DNA of 64,000 bases from a virus: positions 1 to 64,000 of the IMG/VR virus record IMGVR_UViG_3300028423_000904; one strand, written 5' to 3'. A program made the translations under genes and the position numbers. Below the pieces are notes generated by a model. That model was not told where the DNA came from. It worked only from the letters and a program-made list of their open reading frames with translations, and made no database searches. The first letter of the stretch is position 1; the number at the start of each line of letters is the position of its first letter. This document shows positions 27,115 through 35,213 of the stretch, one piece after another.

Positions 27115-27178
27115 CTAGATAAGTAGCCTCCAAATAAATACTGTTAGAGCAGAATTTGGCTTTAACAGGAGATAATAC

Positions 27179-29638
27179 ATGGCTACTCTAGTATCACCAG
27201 GCGTTGACGTAACAGTTGTTGACGAAAGCGCATATGCTAGCCCAGGGGCTGGCACCATCCCACTCATTGTTGTTGCTACTGCGCAAGACAAGACTGATCC
27301 AACAGGAACAGAAACTGATGGCATTGCAAAATATACCAAATCAGCAAATGCTAACCTTGTCGTGCCGGTTACATCACAGCGTGAGCTAACACAATTTTTC
27401 GGAGACCCGACATTTGCATCAACTGAAGGTGCAGAAACAAGTGAATATGGTCTTCTCGCAGCATACAGCTATCTTGGACAGGGTTCACAGGCATATATTG
27501 TCCGTGCAGCAATTGACCTAAGCGAGCTTACAGCTACAGACACAATGCCAACTGGTCCAGCAAATGGTAACCAGATTTGGTTGGACACAGATGCTAGTTC
27601 ATTTGGTCTACACGTTTATGACTCATCGTCAGCAAGCTGGGTCTTGCAAGAAGTCACAGTTGAGGTTTCACTTTCAGCTTCAGCTGGTGAAATTTCAGAC
27701 CCAAGCAGTTATGCACCAACCGCATCAGCAGGAACCGCAGGAGACTTCCTGGTTGCTGTTCTAAGCGACGGAACCACTGGTTTTGTTCTTGGATATTTTT
27801 ATGATGATGGTGCTGCATGGCAGCCAGTAGAAGTTGGTGGTGAAGCAGCTCTAGCCGCAACCACTGTTACATATGATGCACATTACAACAGCCCTGCAAC
27901 ACCTGCAGGAGACGACATTTGGGTTAAAACAACTAGCCCAGGTAATGGTTTGAACTTGGTTGTTTACCAGTCAAATTCAAGCGGTGTGTTTGGATTGTTG
28001 GAAGTTGAAGGTGTTTCAAATGATGGCGGCACAACATATGTTGCGCAGGACGGAAGCAGCACAACTGACATCGTCAGCAGCATGGACGATAATAACATTG
28101 CTATCAATTTCACAGCAGCAAATGGCGGTGGAGAAATCCTACGCATTGAATCGAGCACTGCAACTTCACTAGATGAGGCAGTGTATGCTCAGGATGATGA
28201 ACCAACAGGCACAGCAACCGCTGGGACATATTGGTTTGACGATACAGCTACTGATCTTGATATTCTTATCAATACTGGATCAGACTGGGAACGTATTGAT
28301 GAAGCAAATATCACATTTTCAACAAGCGAGCCACTAACACCAAGTGATGATGATATCTGGATTGATACAGGAGCACCTGAATCAGAATATCCAAAACTTT
28401 ACCGTTATGACAGTGGTGCAAGCGCATGGTTGCTTTATGACAATACTGACCAGAGTACAGACCGTGGTGTCATCTTTGACGACTTTACTGTTGCAGATCG
28501 TAGCTCACTATCAAGTGGTGCAGTTACAGGTGCTAACTTGTTTGATAGTGCACCAGAAGCAGCACTATATCCAACAAACATGTTGGCAGTGAACATGGCA
28601 CACTCAAGCAACACCCTGCGTGTATGGACTGAAAGCATTTCAGTAAACAGTGGTGGCTCAACAGTTGATGGATGGGTTAATGCTGTGGCAAACAATGCAA
28701 ACGGTAGTGGTGTATTTGGTCGCCCTGCACAGCACAAGTTGGTTGCAACATCAATGCAGGCGGCGGTTTCAGGAAACGAAGACCTTCGCGATCCAAACCG
28801 TAACTTTACCCTGTTGTGTGCACCAAACTTCCCAGAGCTCACTGATGAGCTTGTAACACTCAACAGTGACCGTGGTGAAACAGCGTTTATCATTATTGAT
28901 GCACCAATGCGCCTAACACCAACAGAGGCAGTTTCATGGATCCAAGGCACTGGTGCAAGTGAAAATGGCGATGAAGGTCTTGTAACCAAGAATACCTACA
29001 GTGCTGTTTACTACCCTTCAGGACGTTCAACAACACCAGCTGGCGACACTGTTACCGTTCCAGCAAGTCATATGGTTCTTTACACATATGCTTATAACGA
29101 CAACATTAGTTATCCATGGTTTGCACCAGCAGGCCTAACACGTGGCGTTGTTCAAAACGGAAGCGCAGTAGGCTATATCACAACTGAAGAAGAGTTCAAA
29201 GCAATCAGCTTGAATCAGGGTCAAAGAGATTCAATGTATCTTAACAAACTTAACCCAATCACTCAGTTCCCACTTGAAGGTGTCGTGGTTTACGGTCAGA
29301 AGACCCTGCACCCAACATCAAGTGCACTTGACCGAGTAAATGTTGCTCGTCTTGTTGCTTACTTGCGTGAACGTTTTGACGAAATTGCTCGTCCGTTGCT
29401 TTTTGAACAGAATGACAAACTCACTCGTGATCGTGCAGTTCAGTTGTTCAATTCATTCCTCGCAGACCTACTTACCAAGCGAGCACTAACAGACTTTGCA
29501 GTGGTTTGTGATGAAAGCAACAACACACCAATTCGAATCGATAGAAATGAACTTTATATTGACGTTGCTATTGCTCCAACAAAAGCAGTTGAGTTCATTT
29601 ACATTCCGATCCGTATTGTTAACACTGGTGCCCTCTAA
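27179..29638 (+). CDS. gp18: Tail sheath protein
   Basis: LVSPGVDVTVVDES N-terminus; WFAPAGLTRG, GQKT, DRVNVARL, VVCDESNNTP, PTKAVEFIYIP. Confidence 0.95.
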   Translation: MATLVSPGVDVTVVDESAYASPGAGTIPLIVVATAQDKTDPTGTETDGIAKYTKSANANLVVPVTSQRELTQFFGDPTFASTEGAETSEYGLLAAYSYLGQGSQAYIVRAAIDLSELTATDTMPTGPANGNQIWLDTDASSFGLHVYDSSSASWVLQEVTVEVSLSASAGEISDPSSYAPTASAGTAGDFLVAVLSDGTTGFVLGYFYDDGAAWQPVEVGGEAALAATTVTYDAHYNSPATPAGDDIWVKTTSPGNGLNLVVYQSNSSGVFGLLEVEGVSNDGGTTYVAQDGSSTTDIVSSMDDNNIAINFTAANGGGEILRIESSTATSLDEAVYAQDDEPTGTATAGTYWFDDTATDLDILINTGSDWERIDEANITFSTSEPLTPSDDDIWIDTGAPESEYPKLYRYDSGASAWLLYDNTDQSTDRGVIFDDFTVADRSSLSSGAVTGANLFDSAPEAALYPTNMLAVNMAHSSNTLRVWTESISVNSGGSTVDGWVNAVANNANGSGVFGRPAQHKLVATSMQAAVSGNEDLRDPNRNFTLLCAPNFPELTDELVTLNSDRGETAFIIIDAPMRLTPTEAVSWIQGTGASENGDEGLVTKNTYSAVYYPSGRSTTPAGDTVTVPASHMVLYTYAYNDNISYPWFAPAGLTRGVVQNGSAVGYITTEEEFKAISLNQGQRDSMYLNKLNPITQFPLEGVVVYGQKTLHPTSSALDRVNVARLVAYLRERFDEIARPLLFEQNDKLTRDRAVQLFNSFLADLLTKRALTDFAVVCDESNNTPIRIDRNELYIDVAIAPTKAVEFIYIPIRIVNTGAL

Positions 29639-29664
29639 GGCTAGTCAGAAAATTTAACTAAGTA

Positions 29665-29692
29665 AGGGGGCAGGACATAATGTTCTGCCCCT
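29665..29692 (+). terminator. Hairpin after the tail sheath gene (weak terminator or stabilising stem)
   Basis: GGGGCAGGACA-TAA-TGTTCTGCCCC, no U-tract. Confidence 0.55.
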
Positions 29693-29711
29693 CTCACTCA
29701 AAGGATAAAAA

Positions 29712-30164
29712 ATGAACATGAGATTCTGGAAGTTCTGGACTGTTTTCGTTCTGGTGATTTTTTCACTAGTTACAGGACAGATTTATTTTGGTTTGTTTGA
29801 CCATATACTCGCGTATGACCAAACATATATTACATTCGTTAATATCGGTATATTGATACTTGCTCATTTAATGATGTTACGATTGCATTGGAAGAAAAAA
29901 TACGCAGAACAACATCATAGAATGTTGCATTACCTAGCAGACACTGTGATTGTTTTGGGTCTTATCGGAACCCTGATTGGATTTATTATCATTCTTTGGT
30001 CTGTATTTGGACCAGGTGTTGTAATTGATCCGACAAATGTATCGTTAATGACAGACATGATTTCTCAAGTTGCACAGGGTATGGGTGCAGCATTGATTAC
30101 GTCGCTTTCAGGTCTTATTAGTTCAGCTATTATTAGCCTTCAATTGGTATTTTTAGAAGAATGA
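29712..30164 (+). CDS. MotA/TolQ/ExbB proton-channel family membrane protein
   Basis: About 4 hydrophobic helices; LGLIGTLIGF and GMGAALITSLSGL family motifs. Confidence 0.8.
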   Translation: MNMRFWKFWTVFVLVIFSLVTGQIYFGLFDHILAYDQTYITFVNIGILILAHLMMLRLHWKKKYAEQHHRMLHYLADTVIVLGLIGTLIGFIIILWSVFGPGVVIDPTNVSLMTDMISQVAQGMGAALITSLSGLISSAIISLQLVFLEE

Positions 30165-30757
30165 GAAATGTAGCATCACTATTTGCGTTCATTGATATGC
30201 TCTTTAATTTCTTATTGGGGTTCACCTCATTGTTGATTCTCTCTTTTTTGATAATCAACCCGCCTGGCGACGTAGGAAAGATTGATCCCCCAGTAAAATT
30301 AATGGCCACAATTGAATGGGACGATGAAAGTTTGGCTGATATAGATATATGGGTCAGAGGTTATGATGAAGAATGGGTTGGCTTTACAAATAAGGACGGT
30401 TCTTATGTTTCACTTGAACGTGATGACCGTGGACAACGCACTGACATTATAACTGTCAATGGTGAAGACCAAATAATCATGCGAAATTTTGAAATTATGA
30501 ATTTTACTGAATTACCAGCAGGAGAGTATTTTTTCAATATACATCACTACAGTAATGGTGGTGATCTAGAGAGCCCAGATGTTGAAGTGAAAGTAACAGT
30601 TACCAATATGGATCCACACGAGCTTATATTCCAAGACACAACGGTGTTGTCATTAAAAGAAGAAAAAACAGTTCTCTCATTTGTTGTTGATCATGAAGGT
30701 AAAATATCCGATATCCGGACCGATGTTAGACTGCCACATAAAGAAATTGGAAATTAA
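30161..30757 (+). CDS. ExbD/TolR/MotB-like single-pass membrane protein with a periplasmic beta domain
   Basis: AFIDMLFNFLLGF TM helix with the conserved Asp; ATGA overlap with the ExbB-like gene; IEWDDESLADIDIWV domain. Confidence 0.65.
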   Translation: MRNVASLFAFIDMLFNFLLGFTSLLILSFLIINPPGDVGKIDPPVKLMATIEWDDESLADIDIWVRGYDEEWVGFTNKDGSYVSLERDDRGQRTDIITVNGEDQIIMRNFEIMNFTELPAGEYFFNIHHYSNGGDLESPDVEVKVTVTNMDPHELIFQDTTVLSLKEEKTVLSFVVDHEGKISDIRTDVRLPHKEIGN

Positions 30758-30759
30758 TT

Positions 30760-31203
30760 ATGAATTTAATACTTTCTCTGGTCGTTTTATTTGCAATTAC
30801 GATAGCATTTTTGACATACCGTTCAGATTCTCATTGGTCATTGAAATCTGTTGTCCTTCCAATTTTTTTGATTATAGCGTTATTAGGATATGAACATTAT
30901 GTAGATCATTTAGGAAAGCCACTCCTTGAAAAGCCAAAGGGAGATTATGAATATCATCACCATGTTGTAACATCTGAGTCAAATATTATTGCTTGGGTAA
31001 GAAATCGCGACGGTGAGCATCGTTTATATAAATTTCCTTACAATCGAGAAGATGCCAAAAAACTCGAGAAAGCCAAGCAAGAGACAAAACGAACGGGCAA
31101 GCCCGTTCGTTTGAAATTCAAAATGGGTGAAATAAGTCGAGTGAAAGACTCTGAAGAATGGGATATGCTTCCAAACAACCCAGTCAAACAGCCTGAAAAT
31201 TAA
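30760..31203 (+). CDS. Two-TM membrane protein, third gene of the membrane cassette
   Basis: Two N-terminal hydrophobic segments then a soluble domain; starts 2 nt after the preceding stop. Confidence 0.65.
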   Translation: MNLILSLVVLFAITIAFLTYRSDSHWSLKSVVLPIFLIIALLGYEHYVDHLGKPLLEKPKGDYEYHHHVVTSESNIIAWVRNRDGEHRLYKFPYNREDAKKLEKAKQETKRTGKPVRLKFKMGEISRVKDSEEWDMLPNNPVKQPEN

Positions 31204-31379
31204 GCAGCAGAGTTCTGCACATCGGCCATCATAACCGGCGCCAGCCAGGGCGCAACCGTAATAAGTGCACATACCAGAACAGTGCTAGCCACCATACTGG
31301 GAACCAAAAGAGTCTCGCCGTTATTGATAATCATCAAGCCAGCCGGCGAGATATTGACTTCAGTATCTTTGATCTTCAT
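31200..31379 (-). CDS. Small hydrophobic early protein
   Basis: Own TTGACA-N17-TATATT promoter and GGAGA RBS; hydrophobic C-terminal half. Confidence 0.55.
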   Translation of the reverse strand: MKIKDTEVNISPAGLMIINNGETLLVPSMVASTVLVCALITVAPWLAPVMMADVQNSAA

Positions 31380-31408
31380 GTTCATCTCCATGCTTGTGTT
31401 GTATTTAC

Positions 31409-31918: not shown

Positions 31919-31977
31919 TTTTTTTTGTCAAGATCGATAAATACTCATAACAGAGCGCATTATGAGGAGATAGACGA

Positions 31978-32580
31978 ATGGCAGTTCTTGATAAACTAAG
32001 TGTTCCAGTAAATGGAGAAACACAGGGCACACTGATGCCAAAGCTTCAGTATCGCTTCCGCGTCAACTTCATTAACATGGGACAAGGCGACACAAAAGTT
32101 GCAACCAATAACGTTGTCAGCGTCACACGTCCAAACGTTACACACGATGAAGTCCTAGTGGATACATACAATTCACGTATCTATCTAGCTGGTAAACATG
32201 CATGGGAGCCAGTTACTATTGAACTACGTGACGATATTACATCAGCAACCAGTGCATTGCTAGACCAGCAAGTTGCACGTCAAATCGACATGGCAAACCA
32301 GAGTTCACCACAAGCTGGTGTAAGCTATAAATTCCAGGTAGACATTGAAAACTTGAATGGTGCTAACCCAGATCCAGTCGTTCTTGATACTTGGAGACTG
32401 TATGGTTGCTATGTATCAAACCTAACATATAACGAGACAAACTACGGTTCAGGTGGTGAATACCAGACCATCTCAGTCCAACTTCGTTACGACAATGCTG
32501 CTCACGTTGTCGGTAGTGTTGATAACCTCAGCAACCCAACATTCTCAGCAAATCCAAACGAACAAGACGCAGCTAACTAA
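31978..32580 (+). CDS. gp19: Tail tube protein
   Basis: PKLQYRFRV, YLAGKHAWEPVTIELRDD, WRLYGC, LRYDNA; late motif and strong RBS. Confidence 0.85.
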   Translation: MAVLDKLSVPVNGETQGTLMPKLQYRFRVNFINMGQGDTKVATNNVVSVTRPNVTHDEVLVDTYNSRIYLAGKHAWEPVTIELRDDITSATSALLDQQVARQIDMANQSSPQAGVSYKFQVDIENLNGANPDPVVLDTWRLYGCYVSNLTYNETNYGSGGEYQTISVQLRYDNAAHVVGSVDNLSNPTFSANPNEQDAAN

Positions 32581-32652: not shown

Positions 32653-33282
32653 ATGGGTATTGTAAACTTTGCACAAAATACATTTAGAAGTGATAGTGAC
32701 CAAATTCTTGTACCAAGACAGAGGTTCAATTTCACGTTGGTTTTGGATATATTTGATCGCAACCCCGAAGTTTTTACCCGCGTTTCAAACGTAAGTGCAG
32801 CATCATATAATATCGATTCACAGTTAATGAATCAATACAACAAAAAACGAGTAGTACAAACTCGTCTGAATTATGAACCAATTCAGGTAGCATTTTACGA
32901 TACATTTGATAGCCAGTGGCATACAATCATGACTGAATATATGTCACATTACTACAATAACGGGGCTGGCGTCAACGTCAGAGAAAATCTTGAAGGATCC
33001 TCCACTGTTGATCCAAATTTTGAAACTGATCACGGATTCACCCCAAATGCCGATCGTTATTTCTTTCCTCAGATTCGTATTATCCAGAATGGACATCGCA
33101 ATAGCTATCGTGAAACTATATTAAAAAATCCACACATTACAAACATGCAAGGCGATACATTAGATTATTCAGACAGCCAGCCTGTAATGTATACAGTTTC
33201 ATTTCAACCAGAAAGTATTCAGACAAAAGAACATGCAGGGCAATTTGACTTACCATCATACCTTACAAGATCTGATTTCTGA
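32653..33282 (+). CDS. Tail tube-like protein (gp54/tube initiator-like)
   Basis: NQYNKKRVVQTRLNYEPIQVAFYD, LKNPHIT...DTLDYS tube-fold motifs. Confidence 0.65.
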   Translation: MGIVNFAQNTFRSDSDQILVPRQRFNFTLVLDIFDRNPEVFTRVSNVSAASYNIDSQLMNQYNKKRVVQTRLNYEPIQVAFYDTFDSQWHTIMTEYMSHYYNNGAGVNVRENLEGSSTVDPNFETDHGFTPNADRYFFPQIRIIQNGHRNSYRETILKNPHITNMQGDTLDYSDSQPVMYTVSFQPESIQTKEHAGQFDLPSYLTRSDF

Positions 33283-33298
33283 CTGAATAAATAAAATT

Positions 33299-33775
33299 AT
33301 GTCGAGTTATCAGCAAGGAAATTATCAACCCAAGAATACTGAAAAATATCTTGGGAAGCATGTGCCCAAATATCGTTCAGGTTGGGAATTGCAATTTATG
33401 CGTATGTGCGACAATCATCCAAATGTTTTGGGATGGGCTAGCGAAAGCCATCGAATTCCATATATCAATCCTGTTACAGGAAAGCGCTCAACATATGTTC
33501 CGGATTTTTTTGTGATTTACGTTGATAAAGAAGGCAAGCGACATGCAGAAATGGTAGAAGTCAAACCCAGTAGTCATGTGGTTGGAAATGCAAAAGGTCA
33601 ATATGACAAGGCTATGGCAGTTGTTAATGAAGCAAAATGGAAATATGCGAGACAGTGGTGCCAGCAGCAGGGAATTGGATTTCGTATTATAACTGAAAAC
33701 GAAATATTTAACAAGCCACAAAAACCAAAAGCACGCCGTGGCCCAAGAAAAGTGGCTAAGAGGAAAAAAAGATGA
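33299..33775 (+). CDS. gp4: Head completion nuclease gp4-like (TnsA-like fold)
   Basis: YRSGWE, WASESHRIPY, YVPDF, EVKP, NEAKW, ITENEIF. Confidence 0.9.
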   Translation: MSSYQQGNYQPKNTEKYLGKHVPKYRSGWELQFMRMCDNHPNVLGWASESHRIPYINPVTGKRSTYVPDFFVIYVDKEGKRHAEMVEVKPSSHVVGNAKGQYDKAMAVVNEAKWKYARQWCQQQGIGFRIITENEIFNKPQKPKARRGPRKVAKRKKR

Positions 33776-34149
33776 AAATACTAACATTTCTCTCGATGAT
33801 AACATTAGCAATGTTAGCAAGTAAACCAATCTTAGGGGCTGAGCGTGAAAGCTACTATTCAGGTTTGATTTGCGAACAAGAATATAATGGTTACGAACAA
33901 TCATTGCCTAGCGGCCTTCGCCCAGACTGTCAGACTCCATTCGTAATCATGGAATTTGATTGGGCTACACGATCAAAATCTTATCAGTGTATTGGGCAGT
34001 CATTAATTTATGCACAAGAATCCGGTCTGATTCCTGTTTGTATTTTACTCGCTAGAGATGATCAAGAACTTGAATTTGGTAACAGTTTGGATTTTTCAGA
34101 GTTTGGTATCATATTACACGTGATAGATACCAGACCATATGACCCATAA
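33772..34149 (+). CDS. Signal-peptide protein with PD-(D/E)XK-like motifs
   Basis: N-terminal MKILTFLSMITLAMLA; RPDC...MEFDWA...IGQSLIYA. Confidence 0.45.
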   Translation: MKILTFLSMITLAMLASKPILGAERESYYSGLICEQEYNGYEQSLPSGLRPDCQTPFVIMEFDWATRSKSYQCIGQSLIYAQESGLIPVCILLARDDQELEFGNSLDFSEFGIILHVIDTRPYDP

Positions 34150-34158
34150 GGAAATATC

Positions 34159-34680
34159 ATGACCAAGAAATTGGAAGAAGTTTTTAATTTACCCCCTATG
34201 GATCTTCCTAAAGATAAGGATGATACATCTGAATATTCTGAAGAAGAAATCCATGAAATCATGGAACGTGCAGATAAAATCGACGCTGCACTTCCACAAG
34301 TATCTGGTTTGGATAACATGGATGCAGATTATGATACATATGCAGATAAGGCCATATCAGCGTTTGATGATCTTGTAGATTTAAGTAAAAATGTTGAAGA
34401 TCGTCATGCTGCTGATATTGCCCAAGCAGCGAGTAGCATGTTAGGAAACGCTCTTACAGCAAAAACCAATAAAGCACAGAAGAAATTGGATATGGTAAAG
34501 CTTCAATTGCAAAAAGAAAAAATAGACCATGAAAAAGAAAAGCTTGCTTTCCAGAAAGAGCGTTATCTTAAAGATTATACCAGCGAAGATACTACTGAGA
34601 CAGAAGGAAGAGTAATTGCAACACGCAATGACATGCTAAATGAAATTCTCGAAGGTATGAAAAAAGACAATGACTCATAA
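34159..34680 (+). CDS. Probable terminase small subunit
   Basis: MTKKLEEVFNL N-terminus, helical body, C-terminal VIATRNDML; between gp4 and TerL. Confidence 0.55.
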   Translation: MTKKLEEVFNLPPMDLPKDKDDTSEYSEEEIHEIMERADKIDAALPQVSGLDNMDADYDTYADKAISAFDDLVDLSKNVEDRHAADIAQAASSMLGNALTAKTNKAQKKLDMVKLQLQKEKIDHEKEKLAFQKERYLKDYTSEDTTETEGRVIATRNDMLNEILEGMKKDNDS

Positions 34681-34703
34681 ATACAGTATAATGGGAGACT
34701 CCT

Positions 34704-35213
34704 ATGGTTAAAGATTTAGGGCAATATTTGGCAGAAAACGAAGCGATTCACGAGTTTCGTGTAAAGGTCGCTACTGAACCAACTGATGAGCAGCTCGACG
34801 CGATGGAGTTGCACCTGAGAAAATATGACGGGTTTGATATTACCACACCCAAAAAAACAATTATTCAACGTAATCCACGAGATTTCCGTAGCATTGACGC
34901 CGCAGAAGTCTATATGATAGATTTCAAAACACGTCAACCAGCAAGTCCACATCTTCTACTTGCTGAACTATCGCAAAAAATGGGCATACATGAACGTTTT
35001 CTAATCGTTCGTAACAAATTAGAGCCTCTGCATGTTGAAGACGAATCAGAGGAAATGCCCGAAGAAGATTACCAGACACGCCTTACAGATGAAGATTATA
35101 GCGAAGTTGAAAATACGAAAGCTGAAGACTTTTATGGTGAAGACTTTAAAGAATCATTTCTTAAATCAATTGCAAAAGAGCGTGCAGATCATCTAAAAAA
35201 GGTAGAGGACTAA
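34704..35213 (+). CDS. Conserved late protein, probable prohead/core component
   Basis: Late motif 34677; MVKDLGQYLAE N-terminus resembles T4 capsid-targeting sequences. Confidence 0.5.
   Translation: MVKDLGQYLAENEAIHEFRVKVATEPTDEQLDAMELHLRKYDGFDITTPKKTIIQRNPRDFRSIDAAEVYMIDFKTRQPASPHLLLAELSQKMGIHERFLIVRNKLEPLHVEDESEEMPEEDYQTRLTDEDYSEVENTKAEDFYGEDFKESFLKSIAKERADHLKKVED

Follow-up and report, generated by a model that had tools for sequence, protein, structure and literature searches.

Ion-driven motors of the 5:2 type have, to our knowledge, only a handful of known outputs, namely flagella, the Ton and Tol systems, gliding and Zorya. All characterised members of the MotA/TolQ/ExbB family contain a cytoplasmic domain, which is missing from the channel subunit described here. 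The closest published idea to the present locus, and a precedent for it, comes from TolQ-like genes that are paired with 'transpore helix'-vWA proteins (Mol Biol Evol 2025, PMC12204202); TerD is not mentioned in that study and a trio of the present kind is not covered there. Literature searches retrieved no description of a MotA/ExbB protein with a TerD-like partner, of phage SbmA cassettes or of the trio itself. The three viral genes analysed below, designated A, B and C, are probably the phage-resident version of an undescribed and widespread inner-membrane cassette of the MotA/ExbB superfamily, which would be ion-driven in an Asp-dependent manner and deliver its output in the periplasm.

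The trio is located in a viral record of 91.5 kb, the first 64 kb of which make up the window, that is, the whole stretch of DNA that was analysed. CheckV placed the completeness of the record at ~25%, which implies a jumbo phage. The tail sheath gene is similar to those of Rak2/121Q-like and Atu_ph07-like phages, and both of the tandem tube-like genes that follow the trio are also present in related contigs. The original prediction had described three coupled membrane genes between sheath and tube, and the open reading frames were recovered exactly as predicted. The stop codon of A and the start codon of B overlap in ATGA, the start codon of C lies 2 nt past the stop codon of B, and the hydrophobic segments of all three products predict integral membrane proteins. 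A, B and C form one translationally coupled unit. They are real genes and not chance reading frames because they are jointly conserved in many viral and bacterial loci. A 63-aa reading frame encoding one hydrophobic helix is present on the opposite strand, preceded by a sigma-70-like match of 11/12; tblastn found no counterpart in related loci, and this reading frame may therefore be spurious or unique to the phage. Further downstream, directly 3' of a TnsA-like/'head closure' gene, a 125-aa protein with a signal-peptide-like N-terminus is encoded, which shares ~65% identity with its equivalents in two related contigs.

Table 1. Coordinates of the trio, its flanking genes and candidate expression signals in the window, and of the insertions found in two related jumbo contigs.
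Feature	Position	Strand	Remarks
ATAAATAC sites	27134-27141, 31937-31944, 34677-34684, 22465	+	
ATAAATAC sites	53970, 54444	-	
Tail sheath gene	27179-29638		5' of A
Hairpin	29661-29698	+	After the sheath stop; GC-rich; dG -23.1 kcal/mol, z -3.8
AAGGA ribosome-binding site	29701-29705	+	6 nt before the ATG of A; AAGGA/GAGGA in relatives too
Gene A	29712-30164	+	150 aa; minimal channel subunit of the MotA/TolQ/ExbB family (by sequence)
Gene B	30161-30757	+	198 aa; one membrane helix with Asp12, Pro-rich linker, TerD-like beta-sandwich (model)
Gene C	30760-31203	+	147 aa; two membrane helices, small barrel, flexible tail (model)
63-aa reading frame	31200-31391	-	One hydrophobic helix
Sigma-70-like match	31437-31409	-	Precedes the 63-aa reading frame
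Two tandem tube-like genes	31978-32580, 32653-33282		phrog_4542, E 2e-47 and 8e-14
Gene for 125-aa protein	33772-34149		Signal-peptide-like N-terminus
Homing endonuclease insertions	L011:6340-7989, L015:6371-8008		Related jumbo contigs; phrog_3339, E 1e-110

Judged by its sequence, A is a member of the MotA/TolQ/ExbB family, as had been read from its motifs. It scores 26.8 bits on Pfam MotA_ExbB (PF01618), above the cut-off of 22.9, and 23.8 bits in a six-frame search; a bacterial orthologue reaches 37.5 bits on the same model. The protein contains four hydrophobic segments (residues 8–30, 38–58, 71–107 and 123–148). Its cytoplasmic loop spans only ~12–18 residues, the sizeable cytoplasmic domain of the family is absent, and the C-terminus extends 2–4 residues beyond the last helix. 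The bacterial orthologues are ~254 residues long and have a longer loop than the phage protein. The two C-terminal helices bear the G-x-G-T and A-L-x-T/S-x-x-G motifs of the family in the form of GLiGTLiGF and AALiTSLsG; neither these motifs nor T87, T130 and S131 in the same helices vary among 22 homologues. In the solved ZorA (8vvn, E 0.05), the nearest sequence of known structure, the motifs correspond by alignment to the channel helices. Use of hhalign against individual TolQ, ExbB and MotA sequences of E. coli gave low probabilities and is good for residue correspondence only; it pairs T87 with TolQ T145 and S131 with TolQ T178. A reaches the cut-off of no named NCBIfam subfamily among TolQ, ExbB, MotA, PomA and ZorA, the best rows being PomA (15.2 bits, cut-off 341) and ZorA2 (13.1 bits, cut-off 700), and the PADLOC ZorA models score at most 18.6 bits, below their cut-offs. 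PHROGs holds no family for A, and tblastn of A against cultured phages gave no match.

The structural model of B (pLDDT 79.5) contains a helix (residues 2–32), a Pro-rich linker and a beta-sandwich (residues ~44–190). The helix is the only hydrophobic one, is oriented with its N-terminus inside and holds Asp12 within the FIDMLF motif, and the gene directly follows that of the channel subunit. This single helix with its hallmark Asp had been noted at the outset, as had the lack of an OmpA-like motif, and both features hold up. Conservation was assessed in an alignment of 152 sequences, comprising 149 of the best 150 cluster representatives, the B of the window and two close relatives. Asp12 is found in all 146 sequences that cover the N-terminus, and the objection foreseen in the original prediction, an Asp not conserved among homologues, thus falls away. 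All 152 sequences have W53, D60, D62, L85 and D88. D60, D62, D88, D89, D95 and E111 make up an invariant acidic cluster, accompanied by the equally invariant N109; such a cluster fits metal binding, and the acid-rich sandwich may bind Ca2+.

In the model, the domain of B beyond the linker, predicted to be periplasmic, has a TerD-like beta-sandwich fold. It superimposes on the TerD structure 2qz7_B with a Z score of 10.7 (134 aligned residues, rmsd 3.5) and on a second TerD structure, 2kxt, with a Z score of 9.5; the next-best chain scores 5.9. Foldseek concurs on TerD (E 5e-4). Sequence searches yielded no TerD match in Pfam, no match to ExbD (PF02472), OmpA or any other Pfam family at E<=1, and no OmpA match in NCBIfam. 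A PDB sequence search with the B profile returned chance rows only (BinB toxin, E 0.3), and rows at chance level were likewise all that PHROGs gave. When aligned by hhalign with single E. coli sequences, B gave E 0.53 against TolR and E 0.33 against ExbD, both at low probabilities; the sole local alignment with ExbD, which is not significant, pairs Asp12 with ExbD Asp25. The cassette had been called ExbB/ExbD (MotA/MotB)-like. That description stands for the family of A and for the Asp-bearing helix of B, but B is not a member of the ExbD/MotB family because its periplasmic domain is TerD-like. The B family comprises 1982 representatives of 50%-identity clusters at E<=1e-3 and is covered by neither a Pfam nor an NCBIfam model.

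C was modelled with higher confidence (pLDDT 88.5) as two helices (residues 2–20 and 26–50), a small OB-like barrel (residues 61–127) with the order b1-b2-b3-alpha-b4-b5, and a tail; the two membrane helices and the soluble part agree with the original prediction. The helices lack a conserved His and the barrel starts straight after the second of them. The tail is flexible, ~20 residues long, and has a conserved end motif of the LP..N..K type, a similar ending being retained in many phage versions of C. In bacterial C proteins (loci L023-L102; for example L024:3619-4131), a variable linker leads to a C-terminal LPDPxLPEK that hardly varies; this ending looks like a docking peptide for a partner. 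Some bacterial genomes contain two tandem C genes. Neither Pfam nor NCBIfam gave a match to C, PHROGs has no family for it, and Foldseek returned nothing at E<=0.001. Since the structural neighbours listed by VIA are mostly helical hairpins and the barrel reaches a Z score of only 6.1, to OB-fold toxin B subunits, no structural relative is claimed. A protein atlas contains a viral cluster of 297-aa proteins, all of whose members have a T4-type lysozyme domain, and the N-terminal part of the cluster model resembles the C model (TM 0.64 over 123 residues). A search for longer, fused relatives of C found none, which is weak evidence. The proposal that C is the equivalent of TonB or TolA was not upheld, as C shows none of the features that define those proteins. 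Neither B nor C has sequence similarity to ExbD/TolR, MotB, TonB or TolA.

The sheath-A-B-C-tube order is found in 12 related viral jumbo contigs, in which amino acid identity is 53–67% for A, 46–56% for B, 32–41% for C and 71–79% for the sheath. Two of the 12 contain a homing endonuclease (HNH/DUF7487, 545–549 aa) between the sheath gene and A, showing that this junction tolerates insertions. A scan of viral contigs with the B profile identified at least 202 stretches. Among the 80 viral loci kept, B was recognised in 78, C in 75 and A in 70, always in the order A-B-C. Matches among cultured phages, made by B, are limited to 29 Rhizobium/Sinorhizobium records. HMMs find B and C in all three cultured-phage loci examined (16-3, P10VF and RHph_N3_19); the A profile matches in P10VF and RHph_N3_19, and p038 is a candidate A in 16-3 by a weak Pfam match (E 0.14). 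At least 108 bacterial species genomes match as well. The A-B-C order is present there on chromosomal contigs (80 bacterial loci) of Gamma- and Alphaproteobacteria, including a Pelagibacteraceae MAG, of Myxococcota and of a Spirochaetales MAG, with B of ~203 aa and C of ~171 aa. Similar cassettes, which had been expected in other aquatic phages, thus do occur there and reach further still, to sites away from tail genes, to phages of Rhizobium and to the chromosomes of bacteria.

Relationships within B were estimated by a quick maximum-likelihood tree, rooted at the midpoint only. In this tree, 51 of the 52 bacterial rows fall to the same side of a branch supported at 99%, and the jumbo-phage lineage appears as a single clade (90% support) surrounded by other viral rows. 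One row from a Mesorhizobium MAG (L091) pairs with temperate phage 16-3 (L001) at 99% support and not with the other bacteria; this copy is probably a prophage. Within the limits of such a tree, the phage cassette appears to be an old viral lineage and not a recent capture from a host.

The neighbourhoods of the trio diverge across loci: tail genes and genes for cell-wall enzymes, ClpP-type proteases or an importer are all found. The importer gene is SbmA/BacA-like (PF05992, E 1e-120 to 1e-138) and is present in 44 of the 80 viral loci, mostly directly after C, with a ClpP-like gene usually next in line; upstream, loci of this type contain ribonucleotide reductase, PhoH, DUF3310 and primase-helicase genes. 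The short phage version scores 381 bits on NCBIfam PRK12369 ('putative transporter'; cut-off 385). In marine phage contigs (L110-L165; for example L113:3205-4176 and L132:8608-9273), this short importer gene sits between the trio and the ClpP-like gene, and a second, degenerate ClpP-like gene is found 5' of A. The 91.5 kb record and five jumbo fragments related to it, each 24–46% complete, yielded no SbmA gene. In one viral locus (L171), the trio is inserted between a sheath-stabiliser gene and a small terminase gene; in most other phages it sits among genes of nucleotide metabolism, and it also occurs in the siphovirus 16-3. The recurrent bacterial neighbours encode a lipoprotein, a YkuD L,D-transpeptidase (just upstream in 13 loci), DUF302, a vWA-FHA protein and housekeeping functions (tilS, accA-like, dnaE-like, cytochrome c). 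There are no obvious defence islands and no recurrent SbmA neighbour in the bacterial loci. In some Gammaproteobacteria (L023:7115-8653), a protein with vWA and FHA domains follows C, which recalls the vWA partners of TolQ-like motors (PMC12204202).

The hairpin that follows the sheath gene is succeeded by TCTCACTC and lacks a U-tract, in line with the original prediction; it is likely a leaky terminator or an mRNA-stabilising element. Five relatives (L004, L005, L006, L010 and L012) have hairpins of -20 to -28 kcal/mol at the same post-sheath position with different sequences, which fits late, attenuated read-through. Sigma-70-like matches in the region are at background (11 observed, 13.9 expected), and there is no enrichment of TATAAATA, which we take to be the T4 late-promoter core. 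Another motif, ATAAATAC, precedes the start codons of the sheath and tube genes by 41–45 nt and the reading frame at 34704 by 20 nt; no copy precedes A. Its six occurrences, with 3.1 expected, are not significant by count alone; it may be the late-promoter core of the source phage, a variant of that of T4. The earlier statements that no promoter is evident and that read-through from the sheath gene is plausible both agree with these data, since relatives also have a GC-rich hairpin at this position and A lacks a candidate late motif 5' of its start.

The reading of the trio as a member of an ion-driven inner-membrane cassette family builds on what the analysis shows: the family of A, the invariant Asp and channel residues, the TerD-like fold, a trio that stays together across loci, and a cassette lineage that is, within the limits of the tree, old in phages. 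By analogy with the solved 5:2 motors, A would form an ion-conducting ring into which two copies of B insert their Asp12 helices. Flow of protons or Na+ past the Asp and the ring of Thr/Ser residues would then move ring and axle relative to each other. As A is almost devoid of a cytoplasmic loop, the work would have to be delivered in the periplasm, through the acid-rich TerD-like sandwich of B together with C. C would probably be a peripheral third subunit that faces the periplasm and contacts an envelope partner through its barrel and tail motif. B and C may in this way work like ExbD/MotB and TonB/TolA without belonging to those families. The trio has no recognisable promoter of its own and is probably expressed late, at a reduced level, by read-through of the post-sheath hairpin; such expression would have it act on the envelope of the infected cell and not as a part of the tail. 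We infer the topology of C, the timing of expression and the target of the trio on the same footing as the 5:2 stoichiometry and the ion flow.

Control of the envelope or cell wall and coupling to uptake are the leading candidates for the role of the motor, although each taken singly is unlikely to be right. In the former, the motor would hold, move or gate a periplasmic partner at the peptidoglycan, and so time lysis or keep the envelope intact late in infection. This is an improbable but serious alternative, favoured by the resemblance of C to the N-terminal part of the 297-aa lysozyme proteins, by the YkuD genes upstream of bacterial trios and by the late or structural position in the source phage and in L171. 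The lysozyme link is, however, a resemblance between models without an alignment, the search for longer relatives of C found none, no T4-type lysozyme was detected in the source record or in five other records that carry the trio, no lysis gene adjoins the trio in the source phage, and none was seen next to it in the loci examined. Uptake, which we consider less probable again, would have the trio act as a Ton-like energiser of solute or peptide import, followed by passage of the inner membrane through a phage- or host-encoded SbmA/BacA. Uptake of microcin J25 in E. coli requires both TonB-ExbBD and SbmA, and the SbmA/BacA-like gene behind so many viral C genes makes a circumstantial case for uptake from other phages. 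The gene was not found in the incomplete source record or its related fragments, nor does it recur beside bacterial trios; C does not resemble TonB in its features, the trio is not linked to a gene for an outer-membrane receptor, and SbmA is itself proton-driven and would need no motor.

The trio might, as a further alternative, exclude superinfecting phages or interfere with Zorya, Ton or Tol; to do so, it would block the entry of DNA or poison complexes of the host. All its parts are located in the membrane, A has weak matches to ZorA models, and ter operons containing TerD confer phage inhibition. Yet the ZorA scores are far below their cut-offs, an effector domain is absent, the TerD-like domain of B is periplasmic in prediction whereas Ter proteins are cytoplasmic, and the bacterial copies lie among housekeeping genes and not in obvious defence islands. 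We regard this explanation as very unlikely; superinfection exclusion, uptake, lysis timing and anti-Zorya/Ton activity, as originally proposed, are guesses, of which uptake alone has gained a circumstantial case. That the trio is a component of tail assembly or of the virion might be suggested by its position between sheath and tube, which is kept in the 12 related contigs. This reading was rejected because all three products are integral membrane proteins and because the trio occupies non-tail sites elsewhere, namely in the majority of other phages, in siphovirus 16-3 and on the chromosomes of bacteria. Homing endonucleases can also separate the sheath gene from A, and we assign the tail reading almost no probability.

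The reading as an ion-driven cassette with a periplasmic output can be extended, speculatively, to a new functional class. The trio would then be a minimal A5B2 rotary engine with no cytoplasmic face, whose TerD-like arms, together with C, turn the membrane potential of the infected cell into periplasmic work, gating import with SbmA or timing lysis at the wall; bacteria would use the ancestral form for an unrecognised envelope task. This extension is more likely wrong than right. The trio itself would extend the known motors by a branch in which the partner domain, TerD-like in fold, and the third subunit are both new and the ring subunit is smaller than any seen before. Its carriers include many ocean phages as well as Rhizobium phages that can be grown in culture. 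Its compactness suits studies of the minimum that a motor core requires, and it may reveal an unrecognised use of host membrane energy by phages. As B and C match no Pfam or NCBIfam model, thousands of such genes are now annotated as hypothetical.

Among characterised systems, the proton-driven 5:2 motors ExbB-ExbD-TonB and TolQ-TolR-TolA are likewise encoded by three coupled genes for inner-membrane proteins, arranged as in the trio. A MotA/TolQ/ExbB family member whose channel helices bear Thr/Ser comes first. It is followed by a protein whose N-in helix carries an Asp of the essential type close to the cytoplasmic end, and the last protein is membrane-anchored with a part facing the periplasm. 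They differ from the trio in each subunit: A is a four-helix protein of 150 residues without a cytoplasmic domain, the domain of B is a TerD-like sandwich in place of the ExbD/TolR fold, and C replaces the SHLS helix, long spacer and C-terminal domain of TonB/TolA with a pair of helices, a barrel of OB-like type and a short tail. MotAB and PomAB resemble the trio in having a four-helix A whose ion pathway runs through the last two helices, and a partner Asp on a single helix; PomA is also the best NCBIfam row for A, at ~15 bits. In contrast to these stators, A lacks the cytoplasmic torque-generating loop, B lacks both the plug helix and the OmpA-like peptidoglycan-binding domain, and a flagellar context is absent.

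Zorya contributes in ZorA the solved sequence nearest to A, with the same channel motifs. ZorA, however, has a long cytoplasmic tail, ZorB has a peptidoglycan-binding domain, and ZorC/D or ZorE serve as effectors, all of which the trio lacks; PADLOC returned nothing for B, C or the next reading frame. TerD, TerE and TerZ have the same beta-sandwich fold as is modelled for B, whose domain carries conserved Asp-rich motifs; no sequence-level match between them was found. The Ter proteins are soluble and cytoplasmic, whereas the domain of B hangs on a membrane helix and, by prediction, lies in the periplasm. The TolQ-like pairs share with the trio the joining of a TolQ-like ring gene to a partner in which an Asp helix is fused to a periplasmic domain other than that of ExbD (PMC12204202). 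The trio departs from them in that the domain of B is TerD-like and not vWA, that a third gene with two transmembrane helices is always present, and that the cassette is common in phages.
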